Made by a program: the position numbers and the translations under genes
Shown here: piece after piece, positions 1,116-23,489 of the stretch
Numbering within the stretch: position 1 is the first letter of the stretch
Layout of the letters: each line of letters begins with the position of its first letter
The notes under the pieces: model-generated
What the model was told of the DNA's origin: nothing
The model's input: only the letters and a program-made list of their open reading frames with translations
Databases searched by the model: none
Assembly: GCA_030614005.1 (NCBI GenBank)
Contig: JAUWKS010000013.1
Location: forward strand, 38,337-62,336
Source: Candidatus Heimdallarchaeota archaeon
GTDB taxonomy: Archaea > Asgardarchaeota > Heimdallarchaeia > JABLTI01
Direction: 5' to 3'
Length of the DNA stretch: 24,000 bases

Positions 1116-2891
1116 CTAAACTTGACTCCTATAGACAATTGCATTCGGTACTCCCGCAATATTAGCTACGACTATTAATCCGTGCTGTGAAAAGAATTCA
1201 TGAATGTCAAAGAAATATAGAGTCACTCTTTGAATATCAGTCGTTCGAACAACAACATACGTACCTTTTATTGAGAATTTTTCTAAAGTATCACTATCAT
1301 TCAGTCTCCATATTGGACTTGTAAATTGTGAACGTATGAAAGTAATTGAAATATTTTTATTCAAATAAGCGTAACCACCTGTATACCAAACCATTTCTAG
1401 AACAATAAGCCTTTCAGAATCTTCTTGTTGCCCTACCCAGTACATTGCATTACAGATGCCTGAATTCCATTTCCACATATAGTTTTTCTTAACTAATCCC
1501 ATATACAATGAAGATGTGCTTAACATAACCAGAAGTAAACCTAAAACAACATATTGAAACTGTTTTCTTTTAACCAATTTCGAAAATTTGTAAATACCAT
1601 TAGCAACGAAAAGCATGCCAAGGGGAAGAAAGGTCATTATAAATCTAAATTCTTTATGAGCAATGGATGAGAAAATTGCTAACCAATAGAACATTAAAAT
1701 TAAAACGAATACTTTTGACTTGGTCTTTTCCTTAAAAATAAGTCCAAAAATGAGTAAGAAAAAAAAGATGAATATGAAGATATAGGCGAAATCAGTGAAA
1801 AATCCGGCAAAGTATTGGAACCAGGGAGACGTACCATGATATGCACTATTGCCTTCCACAATATTATATCGAAAGTAATTGATAGGCGAATGAAGAAAGG
1901 TACCCCAAGTAAATAAATCTAATAATCCCTGGAAGAGAACCATCAAAAATGCTCCCCCACAAAAACTTGCTAGAGTTGAAAACGAATTAAGATATTCACC
2001 TCTACTTAGAGGTTCATATGTTTTCTCTTTCTTCTTAGCTAACGTTCTAAATGAAATAGCTATTTTTCTGCAAACATCTACAATAGGTTTGTATAAAATT
2101 GCAATTGCTAGAGGTATCCCCATAAGAGCTCCTGGAAATCGTATCATAAAAGATAGTCCTAATGAAAGTCCGGCAATTGCAGAAAGAGTGACTTTCCTCT
2201 TCGCTTTTTCATGTCTTATCGCCTTATAAATTAGAAAAATGCTTAGAAAGAGAAAATCAGAAGACAATGAATCTGTCATAGTTCGACTCGCCCAATAAGG
2301 GAAAAACCACCAAGTACCACAAATAAATGCACTTATTAAACCAACGATTTTATTAAACATCTCTTTGCCAAATAGATATGAAACTACAACAGTAATTATT
2401 GAGAAAAGAGAAAGAAATAATCGAGCCGAATAAATCAAAACCAATGGATCTGTTATTCCGAAGAGCATTAGAAATTTATAGACCCCAACAAGTATTAAAA
2501 CAAAGAACCATGACCTTGCTCCACCAAATCGATAAGCAGTGTTGTATTCCCAAGGAATGGTTTGACCTGTTCCATATTCCCCATATATCCAATAATGAAT
2601 CATTTCAAGCGATTGAAAGACTTCATCAGGATGAACAAACCCTTGGGATTCTTGTGCAGCTAAGAGACGAAGAAGAATGGATAAAATGATAATAACTGTC
2701 AAAGGTAAATAATTGAATATTTTTTTGAAAAACGTTGTACTAACAACATCAGAGAAATTCTTTCTAGTGGGCATGTGTTCATTCACTTTTTCTTGATCAT
2801 GAATGGAGAATTGAGTTTTAGTAGGTTGGTCTCCATCGAGCAAAAGCCATTCTCTCCAGTTTAGGTATACAAGGTTAGAAATATTAACCAT
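1116..2891 (-). CDS. Polytopic GT-C glycosyltransferase, GT22 (ALG9/ALG12/PIG-B/PIG-Z-like) mannosyltransferase family
   Basis: 591-aa ORF with more than 10 predicted TM helices. After the first TM helix comes the luminal-loop signature GFVHPDEVFQSLE (HPDE at nt 2622-2633), the hallmark HPDE-x-FQS-xE motif of the Alg9-like mannosyltransferase family. An alternative start exists at M40 (nt 2774). Confidence 0.7.
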   Translation of the reverse strand: MVNISNLVYLNWREWLLLDGDQPTKTQFSIHDQEKVNEHMPTRKNFSDVVSTTFFKKIFNYLPLTVIIILSILLRLLAAQESQGFVHPDEVFQSLEMIHYWIYGEYGTGQTIPWEYNTAYRFGGARSWFFVLILVGVYKFLMLFGITDPLVLIYSARLFLSLFSIITVVVSYLFGKEMFNKIVGLISAFICGTWWFFPYWASRTMTDSLSSDFLFLSIFLIYKAIRHEKAKRKVTLSAIAGLSLGLSFMIRFPGALMGIPLAIAILYKPIVDVCRKIAISFRTLAKKKEKTYEPLSRGEYLNSFSTLASFCGGAFLMVLFQGLLDLFTWGTFLHSPINYFRYNIVEGNSAYHGTSPWFQYFAGFFTDFAYIFIFIFFFLLIFGLIFKEKTKSKVFVLILMFYWLAIFSSIAHKEFRFIMTFLPLGMLFVANGIYKFSKLVKRKQFQYVVLGLLLVMLSTSSLYMGLVKKNYMWKWNSGICNAMYWVGQQEDSERLIVLEMVWYTGGYAYLNKNISITFIRSQFTSPIWRLNDSDTLEKFSIKGTYVVVRTTDIQRVTLYFFDIHEFFSQHGLIVVANIAGVPNAIVYRSQV

Positions 2892-2970: not shown

Positions 2971-5091
2971 TTGAGCGACTATATACATACTATCAGCTTC
3001 AAAGTTCTCATAGATTCTGAAGTGGTGGATTTTACGTTTAGAGTTCCACGAGGAACGTTGCTAATCCAAGTATTGGATGAACTTGAAACAACGCTGAAAA
3101 TTCAGCCAAGGGTTATTGCTACAGTAAATCATGATGGAGAAATAGTTATTATCGAAAACCATTATTCCACCGTTGAGTACCTTATGCAAAAACATGGAAC
3201 TGATTTTTATGCTGGCGGATCAAGTATTGTGACATTCAATCATGGAGAATACATTATTGATCTAGAAGTTCCAGAAGCAATTCCATTTGCATCATCCTTT
3301 AGAACAGCCTGTAAAAGCTTCTCGATAATGCCAAGAGATGTCTCTATGGAAAGACAAGATGGTCAAGTGATGGATTATGAAATATTTCGTATGCCCACCG
3401 CTTTTGTGCTAAACTCTTGGGGGAATTTTTATCGAATTGTTGATCGCGAATTAGGTGATCCTTTAATTGATCCACCAAAAGCAGTTGAAGAAGAGTCGCT
3501 CACACATACAGAGCAAACTTCTGAAGAAATAAAATCGGAACAAGATTCAATGGTCTACCCACCGAAATTAGATGGTTCTGAATTAATAGATGCAGCTTCA
3601 GTAGTATCTGAAATAGATACTTTGACTGATCATTTTGTTGAATCCTCCTTATCTGATGACCAAGAAAAACCAACAATTGAATCATTAATGGATGAAATAC
3701 GTATAGATAGTGAAACCGATTTAGACGATGACGAAGAGGAGTTTATGACTCAAGCAATTGACGAACCCTTAGCAGATTCTGTTATTACAGATGTTTCACA
3801 CATAGAGGAGAAGGAGGAGGAACCTGAAGGCGTTCCCCTAAGTGAAGTGATTGATTTTGACGATGAAATAGAAGCTTTAGAGGATGAAACAATTGCTGAT
3901 GAAGAGGAAGAAGATGATTTAGAAATTTTTGCCCAAGATTATGAAGAAGTAACGGATTTTGAAGAAGTTGATACTGAAGAACAAATTTCCGATGAATTTG
4001 TTGATGAGGATGAAGAGGTCATTGACGATCTTCCAATTGAAGAAACTTCTCCATCATTTGAAGAAATGATAACAACTTCTGTAATAGAAGAGAAAGTAGA
4101 ATCAGATGAAGTTGAAGAACCTGAGGAAGAAAAAATAGTTACTCAACCATTTGATGATGAGCAATTTATTGATTCAATCAATGATCATTATGTTGAAAAA
4201 GATACGAGTGATCAAATACCAGTATTCTCTACTGATGAAACAGAAATAACCGAAGATGTTGAGGATGAAGACTTAGACGAAGACCCTCAAGCATTGGATG
4301 ATTTGACGGAAGATATGGTTATCAAATCCGAAGATATTTTCGAATCTGATCTCAAAGAGATAGATGAAGTAACTGAACAACCAGTAGTTGCTCCTATTCA
4401 GGATGATTTGTCTTTAGACCAAAGATTAGAGATTAGAAAACAAGAGCTAGTTACTCTTGAAAAAATCTTAAGTGAAGAAGAGAAATTAAAAGTAAAGATA
4501 CAACAAAGGACAATTACCATCGATTATTATGAGAAAATGAATCCACGAAAAATATATCCAATAGCGGTGAAAATTTCACCTACTACTTCACCTAAACAAA
4601 ATAAATTCACTGACCAACTAAAGATTGTACCGATATTTCCAGGTTGTTATGTAACTCCCCATCAAGAAATTATTGAAATAAATGGTGAAAGTGATATTGA
4701 TACAGAATTCACTGTAACACCTCTAATTAGCAAAGGAATAGTAAATGGAAAACTTGGTATCTGGTATAAAGAAAGAAATATTCTCAATATCAATACTAGA
4801 TCAAAAATAAGGAATTATTCGGGTTGCATTGTTAGTAGCATATTGGCATTTCTATTTGGAATTATGCCTTTTATGTTTTTAATATTCAATTTTAATTTTA
4901 ATGAAGCTTTAGCAACTGGAATAAATAACATTCTTTCAACATCATTGACAACTACTTTGTTAATGATTATTGAAATAATTCTGTTAGTAGTTTTCCTTGG
5001 CCTAATGGTAGGGTTTATTTTCGTAGGGAAACCAGCAAAACGAAAAATAAAACGCAAATTTTATCCTGTTGCACCTCAATCTGATGATTAA
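2971..5091 (+). CDS. Hypothetical membrane-anchored protein: N-terminal globular region, ~300-aa D/E-rich disordered spacer, coiled coil, beta-rich domain, 2 C-terminal TM helices
   Basis: 706-aa ORF with a TTG start preceded by GAGGT (acagaggtagaaaa-TTG). Residues ~170-480 (nt 3478-4410) are dominated by D/E with interspersed I/V/F/L. TM helices are ILAFLFGIMPFMFLIFNF and LLMIIEIILLVVFLGLMVGFIFVG, followed by a basic tail KPAKRKIKRK. I recognise no family. Confidence 0.8.
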   Translation: MSDYIHTISFKVLIDSEVVDFTFRVPRGTLLIQVLDELETTLKIQPRVIATVNHDGEIVIIENHYSTVEYLMQKHGTDFYAGGSSIVTFNHGEYIIDLEVPEAIPFASSFRTACKSFSIMPRDVSMERQDGQVMDYEIFRMPTAFVLNSWGNFYRIVDRELGDPLIDPPKAVEEESLTHTEQTSEEIKSEQDSMVYPPKLDGSELIDAASVVSEIDTLTDHFVESSLSDDQEKPTIESLMDEIRIDSETDLDDDEEEFMTQAIDEPLADSVITDVSHIEEKEEEPEGVPLSEVIDFDDEIEALEDETIADEEEEDDLEIFAQDYEEVTDFEEVDTEEQISDEFVDEDEEVIDDLPIEETSPSFEEMITTSVIEEKVESDEVEEPEEEKIVTQPFDDEQFIDSINDHYVEKDTSDQIPVFSTDETEITEDVEDEDLDEDPQALDDLTEDMVIKSEDIFESDLKEIDEVTEQPVVAPIQDDLSLDQRLEIRKQELVTLEKILSEEEKLKVKIQQRTITIDYYEKMNPRKIYPIAVKISPTTSPKQNKFTDQLKIVPIFPGCYVTPHQEIIEINGESDIDTEFTVTPLISKGIVNGKLGIWYKERNILNINTRSKIRNYSGCIVSSILAFLFGIMPFMFLIFNFNFNEALATGINNILSTSLTTTLLMIIEIILLVVFLGLMVGFIFVGKPAKRKIKRKFYPVAPQSDD

Positions 5092-5460: not shown

Positions 5461-6240
5461 TCAATGGTATTTTGCATTTGAGCATTTGTTCCTAGATTTA
5501 ATCTTGATGGAATCAAAGAGCATTGAACCGATATCAATGAATAATAATCTATTAGTTAACAATGGTTTTTCTTTTAACATAACTCTAGTAGCTTCGGCAA
5601 TCTGTAAACTACCAATTAACTGTATTATACTCGGATGAATGCCAGTTTCTGCTGAAGATGGAAGTGCATTATCATCAATATGACCAAATAAACACTCGAT
5701 ACAAGCGCCTCCTCGAACAACTGTCATTACATTCCCTGCTAAACCGCTAACCGCACCAAATAGGAAAGGTATATCGCTTTCTAAGCATTTCTTGTTAATT
5801 GCGAATCTTGATGTGAACCTATCTAAAGCATCAATAACAAAATCAACATTATCAGTTACAAGATCAACATTTCTAGTAGAAACCTCTTCTTGAATGATTT
5901 CAATTTTAACATCTGGGTTTAGCTTTTCTAAGAATTTTTTAGCCGCATTTACCTTTGGTTTGCCTACATCCTTTTCACGGTATAGCATTTGTCTTTGTAA
6001 ATTTGATAACTCAACAATATCTTTGTCAAAAAGTCGCAGGTGACCCACACCTAATGCTGTAAGTTGAGTTGCAGTAACAGAACCAAGACCTCCAGCTCCA
6101 ACAATTGAAACTCTTGCTCGTCGAATTTTTTTCATACCCTCAACACCAATTGTTGGGAGATTAACAAAACGAGAATATCTGCCTGTAGAAAAATTGTTTT
6201 CGTTCAAATCTTTATTTCTCCATAAGTAGTTCTTTTGCAA
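5461..6240 (-). CDS. ThiF/MoeB/UbaA-type E1-like adenylyltransferase (ubiquitin-like/sulfur-carrier activating enzyme)
   Basis: RYSRF...IGVEGMKKIRRARVSIVGAGGLGS (Rossmann GxGxxG), LSNLQRQ motif, and a CIEC CxxC pair. There is no rhodanese domain. The start overlaps the upstream HD gene by 29 nt. Confidence 0.85.
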   Translation of the reverse strand: MQKNYLWRNKDLNENNFSTGRYSRFVNLPTIGVEGMKKIRRARVSIVGAGGLGSVTATQLTALGVGHLRLFDKDIVELSNLQRQMLYREKDVGKPKVNAAKKFLEKLNPDVKIEIIQEEVSTRNVDLVTDNVDFVIDALDRFTSRFAINKKCLESDIPFLFGAVSGLAGNVMTVVRGGACIECLFGHIDDNALPSSAETGIHPSIIQLIGSLQIAEATRVMLKEKPLLTNRLLFIDIGSMLFDSIKIKSRNKCSNAKYH

Positions 6241-6802
6241 GTTTCTTAACTAAGCTAAATTCATAATTGTCAACTTCTTTATTGAAACTAATGAAAAAAT
6301 CACTAAACATCTCTTTAGAGAGGCCATTTCGAATATAATTGTTCAGCTGAAGAATTGTTTCAAGACGATCTGCTTCAGATACAATCCTTGCTTCTATTGA
6401 TTTCTTTTCCTGAAATTCAGCGAAATATTCTTGCAAAATTTTCCCTTGTTCTTTAGGGAGCTTTGCAAATAATGATTTTGCCGCATTTTTATCAAGGTCA
6501 TGTTTGAATGCATCATATTTTTCCGGAGAGAATTTTCTTATGCAACGATTAATATCTTGAGATACACTTTCTGAGAGATCATGAATATGGGCCATAATTA
6601 GTGCTTTCTCTAGATTGATTTCCTTTCCTTTAGCTTTTTCATCAAAACAGATTAGCATAGTTATCATAGTAACAAATTGACTGTGGTCTGCAACACTCTC
6701 TACATCTGAAAGCGGAACACCGGAGTAAATCCAACCACTTCTAACAATTCGTTTAAGGCGGATGGCTTCTTGTAAAAATGACAATAGATTAATTTCATGC
6801 AT
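6212..6802 (-). CDS. HD-domain phosphohydrolase, YfbR-like 5'-deoxynucleotidase family
   Basis: RSGW...ESVADHS...HIHDLSE...D pattern, matching the RxGW / E-x-VAEHS / HD-x-xE motifs of the HD_3/YfbR family. 196 aa. Confidence 0.8.
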   Translation of the reverse strand: MHEINLLSFLQEAIRLKRIVRSGWIYSGVPLSDVESVADHSQFVTMITMLICFDEKAKGKEINLEKALIMAHIHDLSESVSQDINRCIRKFSPEKYDAFKHDLDKNAAKSLFAKLPKEQGKILQEYFAEFQEKKSIEARIVSEADRLETILQLNNYIRNGLSKEMFSDFFISFNKEVDNYEFSLVKKLAKELLMEK

Positions 6803-6861
6803 TTATATCACACATCTTATAATAATTCAGTTTTAATTAAAAATGATTGGCAATTACTTTC

Positions 6862-6894
6862 AAAAAAAGAGTTGGTTGGTAAATTGTTCCAACC
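6862..6894 (-). terminator. Intrinsic-terminator-like hairpin + T7 tract after the PAC2 gene
   Basis: On the minus strand: TAG-GGTTGG-aacaattta-CCAACC-aactc-TTTTTTT. The 6-bp stem starts at the stop codon (6894-6896) and the T7 run is at 6862-6868. Confidence 0.5.
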
Positions 6895-7661
6895 TATGTA
6901 TAAAAGTTGCTCTTTTTCCTTGCTTGTCGGGGTGTTCCAGCAGACATTTCATTTGTCTGAAGTGCTAATTCTGAAAGTTTCTTTTTAATGGATTCAGATT
7001 GCTCAATCAAGGTTTCAACATTGATATCTAATTCTTTCAAGTCATTGATAATTTTAACAAGAGAGGCAGCCCCACCAGGATCAGGGAGTTCAGGTCTTGT
7101 GCCTACAAGAAACGCATAACCATCTATATCACTTATCATGGTTTTATTTAGAATTGCACCAGCAAACCCTTTGATAAAGCCACTTTTCAGAGGAGGAATT
7201 TTCAGCTTCTCTGCTTTATTTTTAATTTCGGGTTCGGAAACCATATACACTTTCCCTTCATCCTTTCTATTGAGATAACCAAATCCATCAAGGGTTATAA
7301 TTTCCTTTGCTCCATGCCCTTCTGCCCACGACATAATAGCATTGGAAATAAAGTATGCTGCTTCTGGAGAAACAGCACTTTCACCAATAAATACTGCAAT
7401 TTTCAAATCCTTCTTCCCCATAATCCGATAGGGATGTCTCAGATACCCATCTAGGAAAACAGCAACAGGTGGTATTGCAACGCCTTCAATAAAACCAATG
7501 GTTTTTAGTTCCAATTTTTCACTTATATGTTGGGCAGCAATCGCTCCAGTTAATCCCATACCTGGAAAACCAACAATAACTGTTTCTACATCAAAATCAG
7601 TTTTACAGATGCATCGAGCATACATCTCACTACTTTCAATTAAACTTCTATCATAGTTCAA
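6894..7661 (-). CDS. PAC2-family proteasome assembly chaperone (PbaA/PbaB-like) with C-terminal HbYX motif
   Basis: VIVGFPGMGLTGAIAAQHI...PPVAVFLDG...IAVFIGESAV is typical of the PAC2 family. The C-terminus ends ...KKSNFYT, i.e. F-Y-T, which is hydrophobic-Tyr-X. TTG start with AGGAG 10 nt upstream; M13 is an alternative start. Confidence 0.8.
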   Translation of the reverse strand: MNYDRSLIESSEMYARCICKTDFDVETVIVGFPGMGLTGAIAAQHISEKLELKTIGFIEGVAIPPVAVFLDGYLRHPYRIMGKKDLKIAVFIGESAVSPEAAYFISNAIMSWAEGHGAKEIITLDGFGYLNRKDEGKVYMVSEPEIKNKAEKLKIPPLKSGFIKGFAGAILNKTMISDIDGYAFLVGTRPELPDPGGAASLVKIINDLKELDINVETLIEQSESIKKKLSELALQTNEMSAGTPRQARKKSNFYT

Positions 7662-12790: not shown

Positions 12791-14773
12791 GTGACCACGC
12801 CAGCTAAGGGAGATAAGATAAAAACAAAAACCCCCTACAAGACGCAACCCGATCTTGATAAAATCATTTCAGGTGGTAATTGGTACAAAAAACTCATTGA
12901 AACAATGGATGATGGAATTATTGCTACAGATATGAATAGAATTATTATTTATGTTAACCCTGCTGCTTGTAAAAAATTAGGTTATACTGAAGAAGAATTA
13001 CTTGGAAAAAGCTCTTTAGAAATTGTTGTTGAAGAAGATCGCGCTAGAGTCACTCGAGAATCAGCAATACGCTTTAGTGAAAAAGTCTCTACACAATATG
13101 AAATTACTTTTAAAACAAAAGTTGGCTCAAAATTTCCCGTTCTGATTAGTGGTTCACCAATTTTGGATGAGAATAATCAAACACTTGGCACTTATGCATT
13201 AATTACTGATATCAGAGATAGAAAGGTTGTAGAAAAAGAGTTACGGGATAAGAATAATGAATTACAAAATCTCTATAACAATTTATTGGAGTTATATCAG
13301 CAACTGGGTGCAATAATCGCAGAGACAACTACAGTACCCTCAACTGAAATTTTGCTTTTCACCTCCAAGCATTGTGTGTATTGTGCACCTGCAGAAGAGG
13401 TCCTACAACAGGTACTTGCTTCTTACGCTGGAAAAATCACTTACAGAAAAGTGGATATTGATGAAGAGCCTGAGTTGGCAGCAGAACATGAGATTCTTTC
13501 CCTCCCAACAATTGCAATTGGCGAAGAACAACTAACTTCTGTTCCTGATATCTATAAATTACATTCAGCATTATTCAGTGCATTAGTGCCCGAAGAAAAG
13601 TTCAGAAGAACAAGACAAGAATTAGATAATATTATTGATAATTCACCTGTTGCTATTTTTACTATAAATTCTAAAGGAACGGTTACCAAAAGTAATCCTC
13701 TTGTCGGGATACTGACCGGTGTGGAATTACAAGACATTACAGGTCATGATGCACTAAATCCAGAAAAGAATGGAGAATCACTATTTCCAAAATCACTCAT
13801 TAAGCTTTTTAAGAAAGGCCTAAAAGGTAAGACAATAACTGAAGATCGTTTACGTATCAAAGACTATTCCTCTGAGAAAGATGATCCATTTTCAATTGTT
13901 AGTTTCAAAGTAGTTCCAATGGCTACTAAAGAGGGAGAAATAAACGAAATTCTTGTCTTATGTGAAGATGTCACTAAACTGGCTATGCAAGAAGAAGCAT
14001 TGAGTGAATCCTATACCAAATTAGAAGACCTGAATGACAAGCTTTTACAATTAAATAAAGATAGGTCGAATTTTGTTGAACTTACTTCGACTAAACTTTT
14101 AGAACCATTAAGAAACTCAAGAGAGTTGATAGATACTATTCTTCGTGGGCAATTAGGCATGCTGAGTGAAGAACTATTTGGCACAATGGAATTTCTGAGA
14201 AATAACTTAGAAAAAGTATCAAAAAGTATTTTTGGCATTATAGAATTTTCAAATATAGAAGCACAAGACTTCAGTTTGAAACTTGATGAACATAACCTTA
14301 AGGATCTTATTTCACAAACAACTAGTTTAGTTGGGTCTGTAGGTATACAAAAAAGCTTTATTGGGACAATTGAACTTTCTAATGAAGTCACTGTTTGGTG
14401 TGACTCTGAACAAATTATTCGTGTTTTAAGAAACTTAGTTTTGAATGCTATCCAATTCACTCCTATAAATTGTAACATTCACTTTTCAGCTGAAGATAAG
14501 AATGGTCTTGTTGCTGTTTATTTGAAGGATAACGGTTTTGGTATTGCTAAGAAAGATCTTAAAAGAATATTTGAGCAATATGTAAAAACTGATCCCGAAA
14601 GTTCTGGGTCGGGTTTAGGGTTATCCATGGTAAAAAGTTTAGTGGAAGCTCACGGAGGAACCGTTAGAGCAGAATCGGAAGGCAAAAACAAAGGTTCAAC
14701 GTTTATGTTTACTTTGCCAACCAATAAAGCATCATATGAAAAACTAATCTCTAAGAAAGAGAAATCAAATTAG
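12791..14773 (+). CDS. PAS - thioredoxin-fold (CxxC) - PAS - degenerate HisKA - HATPase_c sensor protein (histidine-kinase-like, H-box His absent)
   Basis: PAS1 runs from YKKLIETMDDGIIATD to ALITDIRDRK. A Trx fold follows: ILLFTSKHCVYCAP...ILSLPTIAIG. PAS2 runs from IIDNSPVAIFTIN to VLCEDVTK. The DHp-like helix SNFVELTSTKLLEPL sits where SHELRTPL is expected. HATPase boxes are intact: N (VLRNLVLNAIQFT), G1 (DNGFGI), F (IFEQY), G2 (GSGLGLSMV). GTG start with GGAG upstream. Confidence 0.85.
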   Translation: MTTPAKGDKIKTKTPYKTQPDLDKIISGGNWYKKLIETMDDGIIATDMNRIIIYVNPAACKKLGYTEEELLGKSSLEIVVEEDRARVTRESAIRFSEKVSTQYEITFKTKVGSKFPVLISGSPILDENNQTLGTYALITDIRDRKVVEKELRDKNNELQNLYNNLLELYQQLGAIIAETTTVPSTEILLFTSKHCVYCAPAEEVLQQVLASYAGKITYRKVDIDEEPELAAEHEILSLPTIAIGEEQLTSVPDIYKLHSALFSALVPEEKFRRTRQELDNIIDNSPVAIFTINSKGTVTKSNPLVGILTGVELQDITGHDALNPEKNGESLFPKSLIKLFKKGLKGKTITEDRLRIKDYSSEKDDPFSIVSFKVVPMATKEGEINEILVLCEDVTKLAMQEEALSESYTKLEDLNDKLLQLNKDRSNFVELTSTKLLEPLRNSRELIDTILRGQLGMLSEELFGTMEFLRNNLEKVSKSIFGIIEFSNIEAQDFSLKLDEHNLKDLISQTTSLVGSVGIQKSFIGTIELSNEVTVWCDSEQIIRVLRNLVLNAIQFTPINCNIHFSAEDKNGLVAVYLKDNGFGIAKKDLKRIFEQYVKTDPESSGSGLGLSMVKSLVEAHGGTVRAESEGKNKGSTFMFTLPTNKASYEKLISKKEKSN

Positions 14774-17416: not shown

Positions 17417-19066
17417 ATGCCAGAAGTAGGTCTAGGAGAATTCGATGATCAAGAAGTATTAAAGAAATCGCTTGTGGCATTCGAAAAAACCAAAAAAGAG
17501 ATTCAAGATCATATTCTTGAAAGAACCGCAGTTGTTCCTGATGTAACTTTAACTGAAATAGAAAAAGAATTCAATATTTCCACAGAACTCGCGAAAGCAA
17601 TTTTTGTGTTAGAATTTGAGTATTATATTCCGAGGAAACTTTCAGCAAATTGTTACCTCTCTGAAATGAAGAGACTTACAGAAGCTCAATATGAATTGCC
17701 GGATATTTACTCTTTTAGAGTAAGGTATTCAATGGAAGAAGGTTTTTGGATTAAATATCTAGTAGTGGATCTTCCAAAAAAACTTGAACATAAAATGGGT
17801 AAACTGAAAAAAATCTATTGTTCTCTATTTGGCGACCTCGCCGCGGATAAAGAAGACGCAGCCGTATATATTATCGAAAGAGCTTTTATCTGTAGTGAGG
17901 TAATAAGACCAATTATCCATTCTTGGATGAAAGAGCATCATCGAGCAAAGTATTCTGATTGTGTGAAAACATTTTTGTGTAGCATCCAACGAAAAGCAAG
18001 AGAAAAGTGTTTACCATTAGTGGAAGAAATTGGCAATAGATTTCATTCACAGATGGATTCACTAAGAAGTATCATTACCGAAATTCGACCAAAAGGGTGG
18101 ATAATGAATGCAAAAGAAGAATATAATAAACTTTCAGAGAAACTAATACTATTTGAAAAGGAAGACTACCTTGATTGGCGATTAGCTGCAGAAATTATTT
18201 TAGAAACAATGTTGTTGAGAGATTTTGATGATCAAGATAAAGAAGAAACAGATTTTGTAGTTAAAGAAATGCCAAAACAAAAAGAAAATATTGTAACTCA
18301 AATGATAACAACAAAAAAGGAAAAATACCTCACAGATGATATTTCAGTAATTCTTACAAAAATAGTTGATTTATCTGAAGAGAACCAGAAACCGCTAATA
18401 GAAGAGATGATACAAGAAAATTATGATCATGCAACAGTCAAAAACCGAGTAAAACCAGCTATTTTCTCAAAGATTTTTCTTGAAAGGATTATGACTGAAC
18501 TGATGATTGGAAATAAAGAAATAGTCAAAATAACAAAGAAATTTGATGTACAACTTATGTTTCGCTTATCTCCTGCTGGAGGAAAAGAATTTCCACATTT
18601 AGGAATAGATGACAAAATAACTGGATTGCTTGAAGAATTTGTTATGGATATTCTACAAAAACAAAATGAGCTAAAAATGATTTCTACAGAAGAAACTATG
18701 AGGGAGAAAGCTGAGCAATCTATTGAAGAGAGCGAAAAACACTCAGAAGAAGTAGACTCGACAAAGAAAAGTCAAGTGGTTGGGAAAATAAAGGAATCGA
18801 GTGAAAAGGAATTATGGTTATTTGTAAGAGATGAATACTTGAAAGAATTATTCGATAGTGAGAAAGAATTAGTTGCAGGAGCAAGAATTCTGAAGAAATA
18901 TTCACTTGAACTGGGATTATTAATGACTGAGGGAGAAGCAACGTCATATCTAACCTCTGAACTCGATAAGAAGGGCTTTTCTATTGAAAGCTCAAGCAGA
19001 GAAGATATTGATTCAAATGTGTGCAAAATCGTTTTCAAACAGTTGAAAGAATTGAGGAAATACTAA
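17417..19066 (+). CDS. Hypothetical protein, 549 aa, K/E-rich and predicted mostly alpha-helical; no family recognised
   Basis: Long ORF with protein-like composition. ATG at 17417 is preceded by GGAGAG 9 nt upstream; the track TTG at 17390 is less likely. Possible winged-helix-like segments occur near both termini (VTLTEIEKEFNISTELAKAIFVL; ARILKKYSLELGLLMTEGEATSYL), but I cannot support a call. Confidence 0.75.
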   Translation: MPEVGLGEFDDQEVLKKSLVAFEKTKKEIQDHILERTAVVPDVTLTEIEKEFNISTELAKAIFVLEFEYYIPRKLSANCYLSEMKRLTEAQYELPDIYSFRVRYSMEEGFWIKYLVVDLPKKLEHKMGKLKKIYCSLFGDLAADKEDAAVYIIERAFICSEVIRPIIHSWMKEHHRAKYSDCVKTFLCSIQRKAREKCLPLVEEIGNRFHSQMDSLRSIITEIRPKGWIMNAKEEYNKLSEKLILFEKEDYLDWRLAAEIILETMLLRDFDDQDKEETDFVVKEMPKQKENIVTQMITTKKEKYLTDDISVILTKIVDLSEENQKPLIEEMIQENYDHATVKNRVKPAIFSKIFLERIMTELMIGNKEIVKITKKFDVQLMFRLSPAGGKEFPHLGIDDKITGLLEEFVMDILQKQNELKMISTEETMREKAEQSIEESEKHSEEVDSTKKSQVVGKIKESSEKELWLFVRDEYLKELFDSEKELVAGARILKKYSLELGLLMTEGEATSYLTSELDKKGFSIESSSREDIDSNVCKIVFKQLKELRKY

Positions 19067-19672: not shown

Positions 19673-20911
19673 ATGTCAATGAAAGCAGATTTCATAAAAG
19701 AATTAGAAATTTCTACATTCTCAAAACCAATTCTAAAAGAAATGGGCGTAAAAGCAATCTTCTTAGTCACTTTTGACATTATCCTAGGACCAATAGCCTA
19801 TGTCAATAAACTCTCTACAGAAAAAAGTGAGTATCTCGAATTTTTGCAACAGAATATAGCGCACCTAGGAGAATTTTACACTGGAATATCACATGCACAA
19901 ATCGATAAAGTAACAACAAGAACCGGAGAAGAAATGCTTGTAGGACGAGCAACAAGAAAAGTAAATGAAATGGAACTAATAGATATCGCCGTAGCTTTAG
20001 TGGACTCAACAGAATATCATAATGAAATTGTTAAGATGCTAAAATTCGTTGTGAGAACGTCATATGGCAATCCAAAAAACTTTTGTGATTTATTAGACAG
20101 AGTGTTGCTGGAATATCAAGACCTCGGAAAGAAAAAAGCAGAGGCAGGAAAATTCGCCGTATTCAAAGATGCTTCAAAGGAAAAAGTGGCGAATATAGCA
20201 AAGCTATATCACAATTGGAAAGGAGTACTATTCATAGATTTTGAAGGAGATAACATAAACAGCTCATTTATGCCGGATTGGATTGAAGCGAGTAAAATAA
20301 ATTCGCAGGAATTAGCTCAGAAAACGAGAAATATGTACGCAGAAGGAGTTATCATTCCAAGATCTAAACAAATATTTTCGATGGTAAGCATAAAAGGCAA
20401 ACAAGTAATCGTTGTATCAACAAATAATTCACGCTATGTAACAATCATTTTCCCGACAGCAGATGGAATGACAAAAATATCAACAATAGCAGAAAATATG
20501 GATATTATTAACGAGGCACTGAGCGAAGTGGGAATGCAATTCAGCACAGATGCAATGAAGAATACTCTCGAGATAATCGATAAAAGAATAAGAGAAAATG
20601 ATACCAGCGTCTTAATGAAAGAAGTAATTGTAGTAATGTTAAGATCCGAAGAGTTGATGCCAAAGAAAAAGATAAAACAAGAAGAATTTGAAGCATTTCA
20701 GGGAGAAATACAAAAGAAATATTTTCAAGGATTGAATAAAGCATTCGAAGAATTTGATGGCACAAAAACAATCTTAGAAATAACTCATAGAGTAAATGTT
20801 AGTTTAGAGCAAATGGGTGATTTTGTGGTGTTTTGTATGACAAGGGGAATTGTGCAGGTCTTTACTAAAAATGGCCGAACAAGAAAAACAGATGGAAAAG
20901 TTGTTATCTAA
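19673..20911 (+). CDS. Hypothetical protein with two roadblock/LC7 (longin-like) type domains and a C-terminal winged-helix domain
   Basis: 412 aa. Domain 1 (aa ~5-150): helix, then GVKAIFLVTFDIILGPIAYV hairpin, helix, three strands, helices. Domain 2 (aa ~170-285): KVANIAKLYHNWKGVLFIDFEGDNINSSF...IFSMVSIKGKQVIVVSTNNSRYVTIIFPTADGMTKISTIAENMDIINEAL, the classic roadblock pattern. C-terminus: GTKTILEITHRVNVSLEQMGDFVVFCMTRGIVQVF (wHTH-like). The CDS is solid; the domain calls rest on pattern only. Confidence 0.6.
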   Translation: MSMKADFIKELEISTFSKPILKEMGVKAIFLVTFDIILGPIAYVNKLSTEKSEYLEFLQQNIAHLGEFYTGISHAQIDKVTTRTGEEMLVGRATRKVNEMELIDIAVALVDSTEYHNEIVKMLKFVVRTSYGNPKNFCDLLDRVLLEYQDLGKKKAEAGKFAVFKDASKEKVANIAKLYHNWKGVLFIDFEGDNINSSFMPDWIEASKINSQELAQKTRNMYAEGVIIPRSKQIFSMVSIKGKQVIVVSTNNSRYVTIIFPTADGMTKISTIAENMDIINEALSEVGMQFSTDAMKNTLEIIDKRIRENDTSVLMKEVIVVMLRSEELMPKKKIKQEEFEAFQGEIQKKYFQGLNKAFEEFDGTKTILEITHRVNVSLEQMGDFVVFCMTRGIVQVFTKNGRTRKTDGKVVI

Positions 20912-22427: not shown

Positions 22428-23489
22428 TCAAAAATTCAAGCCAAAAAAAGATTGCTTTTCAATTTGTTGTTTAAGACTAGGTTTGATTTGTATACAAATA
22501 TCCGTTACTAAAGTCATTAAATCTTCTGGAGTTTGTTTGGTAAATTTCTGGAATTGTTCACTATCAAATTTGCCATTAGAACACATTCCTAACAATTCAA
22601 TACATTTAGTAATAATATTACTCATTTCCTTTTCAAATGATGCTCGAATGTCAATTTCAGTTTTTTGCTTTCGCATTTTTTTTACCAGAGCACGTAAAAT
22701 TTTTGTACCATTTAAACCGGAAGCTGTTCCTTTTTCCAAAGAAATAATTGCTACATCAGCATTTTTGTAATTTATTTCAGAAGCTTGAGGAACACCAATA
22801 ACATTAGCTGTTTGAGGGTCTACATATGAACTTGTATAAGTGATTACGTTTTGAAAGGGAAACGGAGTAAGTAGATTTAGGATAGCTATTGTTTGAGATG
22901 CAGATATTAGATCACTACAAATGATGATTGGTTTGAAAGACAATAAGGCATAAATTACTACATCTAAATTAGATTTAATATGGTCAAAAAGAAAAGTGAT
23001 AGAAACATCGGTAGGGGCATTCATTTTAGCGCGAAAATAAGCTAGATTTTCTTCGGAAAACCTACTCATCTCAGAGAAACGTTGATCATATATTGAAAAA
23101 ACGGCATCAATAATTCCATTTAATATCTGTTCTTGCTTATGTGAGAAGATGAGACCGGTATGAACTTCTTGAATTTCTTGAATCTCAGAAATAATTTTAG
23201 ATACTATTTCAGAGAGAATCTTATCTATTATTTCCTTTTCATAAGCTACATTAATATCCTTGATTATAACAACACCAAAATTCTTACTTATTTTAATATA
23301 GATTTCATGTGTTTGAGTAGCAAAATAGTTCGCTTCACCAACATCCATAGTAGCTAAAAAAGTCTGAATGGCTGTAATAGCTCCTGAGAAAAGAGTAGCT
23401 CGTTCAATAGATTCTTTTCCTTCTGACTTTAATTTTCGGAAATAAAGAGGAAGTCCACTTTGAGAGATAATATATATGGCATCTAACAT
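22428..23489 (-). CDS. Hypothetical protein with N-terminal longin-type domain and central DENN/folliculin-like core
   Basis: 353 aa. The N-terminus LDAIYIISQSGLPLYFRKL...ERATLFSGAITAIQTFLATM...HEIYIKISKNFGVVIIKD has longin beta-beta-alpha-beta-beta-beta order. Residues ~160-260, VVIYALLSFKPIIICSDLISASQTIAILNLLTPFPFQNVITYTSSYVDPQTANVIGVP...ADVAIISLEKG, match the remembered core-DENN consensus. The CDS is solid; the domain call rests on pattern only. Confidence 0.55.
   Translation of the reverse strand: MLDAIYIISQSGLPLYFRKLKSEGKESIERATLFSGAITAIQTFLATMDVGEANYFATQTHEIYIKISKNFGVVIIKDINVAYEKEIIDKILSEIVSKIISEIQEIQEVHTGLIFSHKQEQILNGIIDAVFSIYDQRFSEMSRFSEENLAYFRAKMNAPTDVSITFLFDHIKSNLDVVIYALLSFKPIIICSDLISASQTIAILNLLTPFPFQNVITYTSSYVDPQTANVIGVPQASEINYKNADVAIISLEKGTASGLNGTKILRALVKKMRKQKTEIDIRASFEKEMSNIITKCIELLGMCSNGKFDSEQFQKFTKQTPEDLMTLVTDICIQIKPSLKQQIEKQSFFGLNF

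Follow-up and report, generated by a model that had tools for sequence, protein, structure and literature searches.

NPRL2 and NPRL3 (Npr2 and Npr3 in yeast) form a paralogous heterodimer within GATOR1/SEACIT and are described by published work as having a longin domain at the N-terminus and, after it, two or three winged helices. Longins of Asgard archaea have already been published, as have NPRL2-like proteins of Thorarchaeota and Lokiarchaeota and GP-motif longins of Heimdallarchaeia. A 2025 survey defines the GP motif as one that either closes the beta1-beta2 loop or opens beta2 and finds it specific to the longins of the GTPase-activating protein (GAP) type, FLCN, NPRL2, SMCR8, and C9orf72; adaptin, TRAPP, and DENND longins lack the motif and some Heimdall longins have it (PMC12290439). 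We analyzed a stretch of 24,000 nucleotides, hereafter the window, from an assembly of a Candidatus Heimdallarchaeota archaeon (GCA_030614005.1, contig JAUWKS010000013.1, positions 38,337 to 62,336; contig C123 in our numbering). The window encodes a 412-amino-acid (aa) protein, P0001, in which two longin-type domains precede a winged helix in the predicted structure. This double-longin and winged-helix architecture is unmatched in Pfam and NCBIfam. Since the plan of NPRL2 and NPRL3 is a longin followed by winged helices, P0001 shares that plan from end to end and adds one extra longin.

The AlphaFold2 model of P0001, built from a 26-sequence alignment (predicted local distance difference test, pLDDT, 81; predicted template modelling score, pTM, 0.70), shows two beta-beta-alpha-beta-beta-beta-alpha modules and, after them, a helical spacer and a C-terminus rich in helices with a final strand (Table 1). 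In this model, the two modules display the five-stranded antiparallel sheet and the beta-beta-alpha-beta-beta-beta(-alpha) order of the roadblock/longin superfold and match solved domains; the C-terminal module displays a three-helix bundle with a beta wing and matches solved winged helices. A sequence-only reading of the same DNA had proposed two roadblock/longin-type domains followed by a winged helix, and the two sequence strings that it quoted are both present in the 412 residues. The model and its structural matches bear this out, both longin-type sandwich modules being present in the predicted structure against which the proposal was to be checked. Comparison of the model with the PDB by Foldseek returned Fuzzy-Inturned, Mon1-Ccz1, and GATOR1/SEA chains at the top (E values of 8e-5 to 9e-4, probabilities of 0.80-1.00), and the best whole-chain matches were NPRL3/Npr chains. 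A recent internal duplication was rejected, as hhalign found no similarity between domains 1 and 2. Mean identity was 80% in domain 1, 66% in domain 2 and in the winged helix, and 50% in the spacer, the lowest value among the ordered parts.

Homologues of P0001 (n = 25, 44-91% identity) are all called hypothetical, and only 23 of 1.84 billion representatives searched with P0001 had an E value of 0.001 or below. Distant homologues (20-25% identity) are full-length and of equal length. The homologues with a named source come mostly from Heimdallarchaeota, and also from Gerdarchaeota, 'Asgard group', Kariarchaeaceae, Wukongarchaeota, and one metagenome-assembled genome labelled Thorarchaeota. Because of these homologues and the AlphaFold2 model, the three-module description is correct and the gene is under selection. 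Across five families, of which four belong to the class of the window and one lies elsewhere in the phylum, full-length members were present in 9/11, 1/1, 27/31, 10/12, and 2/2 genomes. They were not found in two further families of the class (0/3 and 0/22 genomes) or in the largest family of the phylum (0/135). The host assembly (3.6 Mb, 90% complete) holds a single copy, as judged by searching the family profile against it at E values up to 10. P0001 had no match in Pfam (E up to 1) or in NCBIfam, and Pfam yielded no useful match for 19 relatives. A likeness to Get3 (3ibg_A, E value of 7.4e-5, helical residues 265-385), seen with a narrower profile, was lost with a broader one and had no structural support; it was therefore rejected as compositional.

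The best-conserved module, domain 1, carries the motif FDxxxGP. Its G39-P40 pair starts the model strand 39-46, the position reported for the GP motif of GAP-type longins, and the F-D...G-P spacing is the same as in C9orf72 (W33-D34...G38-P39). The close family has F34, D35, G39, and P40 without exception; F34, D35, and G39 remain invariant when the 20-25%-identical members are added, with P40 conserved in at least 90%, and F34, G39, and P40 do so when short homologues of another class are added, with D35 conserved in at least 90%. From the pattern hhhhxFxxxLGP, the sequence-only reading had noted a likeness to longins of the Nprl2/SMCR8/C9orf72 type; this likeness stands, given the conservation of the four residues, their agreement with the published position of the motif (PMC12290439), and the occurrence of FDxxxGP in Heimdall proteins that score above the Pfam Folliculin threshold. 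The latter also share an invariant 'RG' in the beta4-beta5 loop. When domain 1 was aligned to these folliculin-like longins by hhalign, the FDxxxGP motifs fell in register with a weak signal (P of 0.005-0.01). Of the three options, GAP, guanine nucleotide exchange factor (GEF), or scaffold, the motif favours the GAP-type class.

In two families identified as Borrarchaeum, a scan of the phylum revealed proteins of 252-258 aa containing domain 1 only (E values of 1e-21 to 1e-26). They cover positions 23/24-157/189 of the family model and lack domain 2 and the winged helix. In their homologous domain 1, G71 is invariant along with F34, G39, and P40, and R92, like D35, is conserved in at least 90%. 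At 6/6 loci examined, the start of the gene is no more than a few bases away from the stop codon of a gene for a small GTPase of 183-192 aa (Pfam Arf, 1.2e-18; NCBI name, ADP-ribosylation factor-like protein). This tight coupling, a matter of gene order, is the best available evidence that domain 1 may work with a small GTPase. No description of the operon was found in the literature searched. The order is Arf-like GTPase, domain-1 longin, and B12-binding-domain protein, an uncommon trio of tightly spaced genes (loci L012 and L016); the B12-binding call comes from Pfam on the L012 protein, and an open reading frame (ORF) of 259 aa likewise follows in L016.

Arf/Ras-type GTPases number at least 44 in the host genome, and four of them are strong Gtr1/RagA matches. 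For the GTPase of the Borrarchaeum operon, no orthologue could be singled out in the host (the best match has 31% identity and an E value of 1e-10), and therefore no partner GTPase is named. The Pfam Folliculin model (PF11704) finds three other host genes, on contigs C57 and C74. On C74, two folliculin-type longin genes lie beside Arf-like GTPase genes, which fits published Asgard DENN/folliculin neighbourhoods.

The only conserved neighbour across the full-length family is P0029, an all-helical protein. The conserved Met at residue 10 (nt 17417) probably marks its start, and its conserved core spans residues 36-245. P0029 adjoins the P0001 homologue on the same strand in three loci (L002-L004), and divergently in L005 and L007. 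The divergent arrangement occurs in family f5, in locus L005, and in a Wukongarchaeota locus. The two genes are adjacent in eight f1 and five f5 genomes; P0029 was found in none of the 31 genomes of family f3. The model of P0029 is all-alpha, with no convincing fold match found, and the literature searched held no description of its pairing with the P0001 family. A complex prediction combining P0001 with residues 20-285 of P0029 scored 0.00, which gives no verdict and was not used for or against binding. A P0029 paralogue of 548 aa on host contig C36 (locus L021) is divergent to a gene for a VTT/DedA-domain membrane protein and has no longin neighbour. Family f4 lacks P0001 yet keeps a P0029-like gene. 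Upstream of P0029, a small hydrophobic ORF of 88 aa has BLAST matches in L002 and L003 and gives only weak, transmembrane-like matches in Pfam. The spacer of about 600 nt between the P0029 and P0001 genes holds an ORF of 45 aa. L002 shares its N- and C-terminal residues (there a called gene of 50 aa), L003 shows conservation of the DNA, and the ORF may encode a genuine small protein.

We give a probability of roughly 0.55 to P0001 being a platform in the cytoplasm that regulates a small GTPase and resembles an NPRL2/NPRL3 subunit with one longin more, a role that we regard as plausible. Domain 1 would contact the GTPase via its FDxxxGP face, as in folliculin, NPRL2, SMCR8, and C9orf72. Domain 2 would form the second half of a longin-longin platform, in the same chain or across a dimer. 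The winged helix, acidic and hydrophobic, probably binds protein and not DNA, and would hold a partner that is possibly P0029. Since no Arg is conserved at the folliculin-type finger loop, P0001 may be, like C9orf72, the member of a pair that is not catalytic, or may use another residue.

Several observations weigh against this reading. P0001 has no sequence-level membership in any family of GTPase regulators. The Pfam models Robl_LC7, longin, NPR2, and Folliculin (PF11704) all miss P0001, NPR2 (PF06218) and NPR3 (PF03666) find neither P0001 nor its 19 relatives at E values up to 1, and profile searches of the PDB with P0001 returned nothing relevant. Against the Heimdall folliculin-like longins, hhalign reaches a probability of only 4-7.5%. 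The structural evidence is drawn entirely from a predicted model, in which domain 1 matches sensor domains of the GAF/LuxR/IclR type as well as it matches longins. An arginine finger is not established, since the Arg of the 'aRGG' loop of the Heimdall folliculin-like longins aligns to N98 and not to R92 or R95 (in a weak profile alignment), R95-K96, 2-3 residues from N98, is invariant in the close family only, and R92, at least 90% conserved superfamily-wide, occupies a mid-strand position and may be structural. The turn at N98 is acidic in distant members. Unlike NPRL2 and NPRL3, P0001 has no paralogous partner in the host genome, where the Pfam NPR2 model finds nothing at E values up to 10. 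Linkage to a GTPase gene is a property of the short Borrarchaeum proteins but not of the full-length family: no full-length member examined has a GTPase gene closer than 6 kb, and none of the GTPase-family matches of the host is on the contig of the window.

Longins also serve as scaffolds, in adaptor sigma/mu subunits, SNARE longins, and SRX. P0001 could be a scaffold or adaptor built on longins, with no part in GTPase control, acting with P0029, and perhaps with the small membrane ORF, in a membrane-associated or trafficking-type complex. Domain 2 alone is closest to the longins of AP sigma/mu, TRAPP, Sec22, VAMP7, and SRX; the one conserved neighbour is helical and not a GTPase; and close relatives retain the small hydrophobic ORF upstream. 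However, GTPases are also partners of most such longins (TRAPP, SRX, and, through Arf, adaptor subunits), the homologues of domain 1 are in an operon with an Arf-like GTPase gene, and FDxxxGP is reported to be absent from adaptin, TRAPP, and DENND longins (PMC12290439). We consider such a scaffold unlikely.

A stronger version of the GTPase-platform reading would make the P0001 family the archaeal sister of the NPRL2/NPRL3 lineage, a pre-eukaryotic longin and winged-helix GAP subunit for Rag/Arf-like GTPases, with P0029 in the place that DEPDC5 has in GATOR1. We hold this to be improbable; if true, part of the nutrient-sensing GATOR1 module was present in the archaeal ancestor.

P0001 might instead be a ligand-sensing transcription factor in which one or two GAF/PAS-like sensors control a DNA-binding winged helix, as in regulators of the CodY, IclR, and TrmB type, a possibility to which the sensor-domain matches of domain 1 are relevant. 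However, the winged helix has a hydrophobic, acidic third helix in which an Asp is nearly invariant, and the isoelectric point of the winged helices is mostly below 7, most of them being neutral to acidic. Moreover, the whole-chain structural matches are NPRL3/Npr chains and not regulators, no Pfam helix-turn-helix family reaches an E value of 1 for P0001, and the homologues of domain 1 are linked to a GTPase operon. We judge this reading very doubtful. A reduced relative of Mon1, Ccz1, Fuzzy, or Inturned that promotes exchange on a Rab/Arf-like GTPase (a GEF), its first longin being the catalytic face in a dimer, is just as doubtful. The tri-longin Rab-GEF subunits (Mon1, Ccz1, Fuzzy, Inturned, HPS1/4) have tandem longins in one chain as P0001 does, but three in a row, and the third module of P0001 consists of helices and a winged helix.

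The sequence-only reading had also suggested that P0001 acts together with a nearby 353-aa protein resembling longin-DENN proteins. This is not supported: the two genes are convergent with a membrane-protein gene between them, and the 353-aa gene is missing beside the homologues in L002-L007. The longin-DENN nature of the 353-aa protein rests on sub-threshold signals, namely Pfam Fuz_longin_1 at an E value of 0.24 and Folliculin_C at 0.011 in two of four members. It has only three detectable relatives besides itself, two of which carry a precomputed PF27109 assignment. Its ESM Atlas score is 0.82, and neighbours there carry Folliculin or C9orf72 domains. ORFs of 319-351 aa downstream of the homologues in L003 and L005-L007 were rejected as its relatives (12-18% identity in forced alignment, no BLAST match at E 1e-3). 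Distant homologues of P0001 are directly followed by an ORF of 319-339 aa in L005-L007, with faint methyltransferase-like matches in L006 and L007; no counterpart was seen in the window.

The window has a G+C content of about 33% and encodes archaeal and eukaryote-like products, including a beta-CASP RNase, PAC2, an Alg9-like mannosyltransferase, and a ThiF-type E1. Neither the Rfam scan nor the tRNA scan of it gave a match. Genes for a ThiF-type E1, a YfbR-like HD hydrolase, PAC2, and an Rce1-like protease recur near P0001 homologues in very distant lineages; the window and L007 both have overlapping ThiF and HD genes. A thioredoxin/glutaredoxin-like insert precedes the ATPase domain of a histidine kinase that has PAS domains and is conserved upstream in L002 and L003. 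The Alg9-like enzyme (GT22) is a eukaryote-type glycosylation enzyme, and next to its gene is a 706-aa ORF without a Pfam match.

Table 1. Positions of P0001, its parts, and other features discussed (window coordinates unless a locus or contig is named).
Feature	Position	Strand	Remark
P0001 gene	19673..20911	+	open frame; double-longin winged-helix protein
Domain 1, residues 17-146	19721..20110	+	short helix, then longin-type beta-beta-alpha-beta-beta-beta-alpha-alpha
FDxxxGP motif, F34-D35-I-I-L-G39-P40	19772..19792	+	beta1 end / beta2 start, domain 1
R92, R95-K96	19946..19960	+	basic residues of strand beta4; candidate functional arginines
Domain 2, residues 181-287	20213..20533	+	longin-type domain
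Helical spacer, residues 288-333	20534..20671	+	model helices 292-307, 316-323; strand 328-332
C-terminal winged helix, residues 334-400	20672..20872	+	probable protein-binding module
P0029 gene, 558 aa	17390..19066	+	upstream neighbour
Small hydrophobic ORF, 88 aa	16917..17183	+	upstream of P0029
Spacer ORF, 45 aa	19086-19223	-	
353-aa protein gene	22428-23489	-	weak longin / Folliculin_C signals
Histidine kinase gene	12791-14773	+	
Alg9-like gene	1116-2891	-	
706-aa ORF	2971-5091	+	
Recurring genes (ThiF, HD, PAC2, Rce1-like)	window 5461-7661 (-); L007 656-4846; L005 2369-4373; L006 5242-5865		
ORFs following distant homologues	L005 7248-8207; L006 7324-8325; L007 7215-8234		
Borrarchaeum-type operon	L012 633-2688 (-); L016 1638-3693 (+)		
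Longin and GTPase genes	C74 33922-34101 (-), 35024-35533 (+), 38701-38970 (+), 24592-25098 (+)		
P0029 paralogue	C36 3182-4828	+	

Asgard archaea have many longin and roadblock proteins and many small GTPases, almost none with an assigned partner or activity. The P0001 family adds to them a combination of GP-motif longin, second longin, and winged helix that lies outside the curated models, together with two testable handles, the helical neighbour P0029 and the short Borrarchaeum homologues coupled translationally to an Arf-like GTPase. The Borrarchaeum operon offers a direct test of whether GP-motif longins regulated GTPases before eukaryotes.

Among the known systems, the roadblock and Roadblock-Longin proteins of Asgard archaea and bacterial MglB have one or two domains and no winged helix, unlike P0001. 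The folliculin/SMCR8-type longins of Heimdallarchaeia (PMC12290439) occur in the same organisms as P0001 and have FDxxxGP at the same beta1-beta2 turn, but they exceed the Pfam Folliculin threshold and carry the 'RG' Arg, whereas P0001 does neither and differs in its C-terminal half, a longin and a winged helix. In comparison with NPRL2 and NPRL3, P0001 has the second longin in addition, one clear winged helix and at most part of another in place of two or three, and no conserved Arg at the finger loop; it has their N-terminal longin and C-terminal winged-helix arrangement. P0001 most resembles NPRL2 and NPRL3, subunits that switch off Rag GTPases in eukaryotes.
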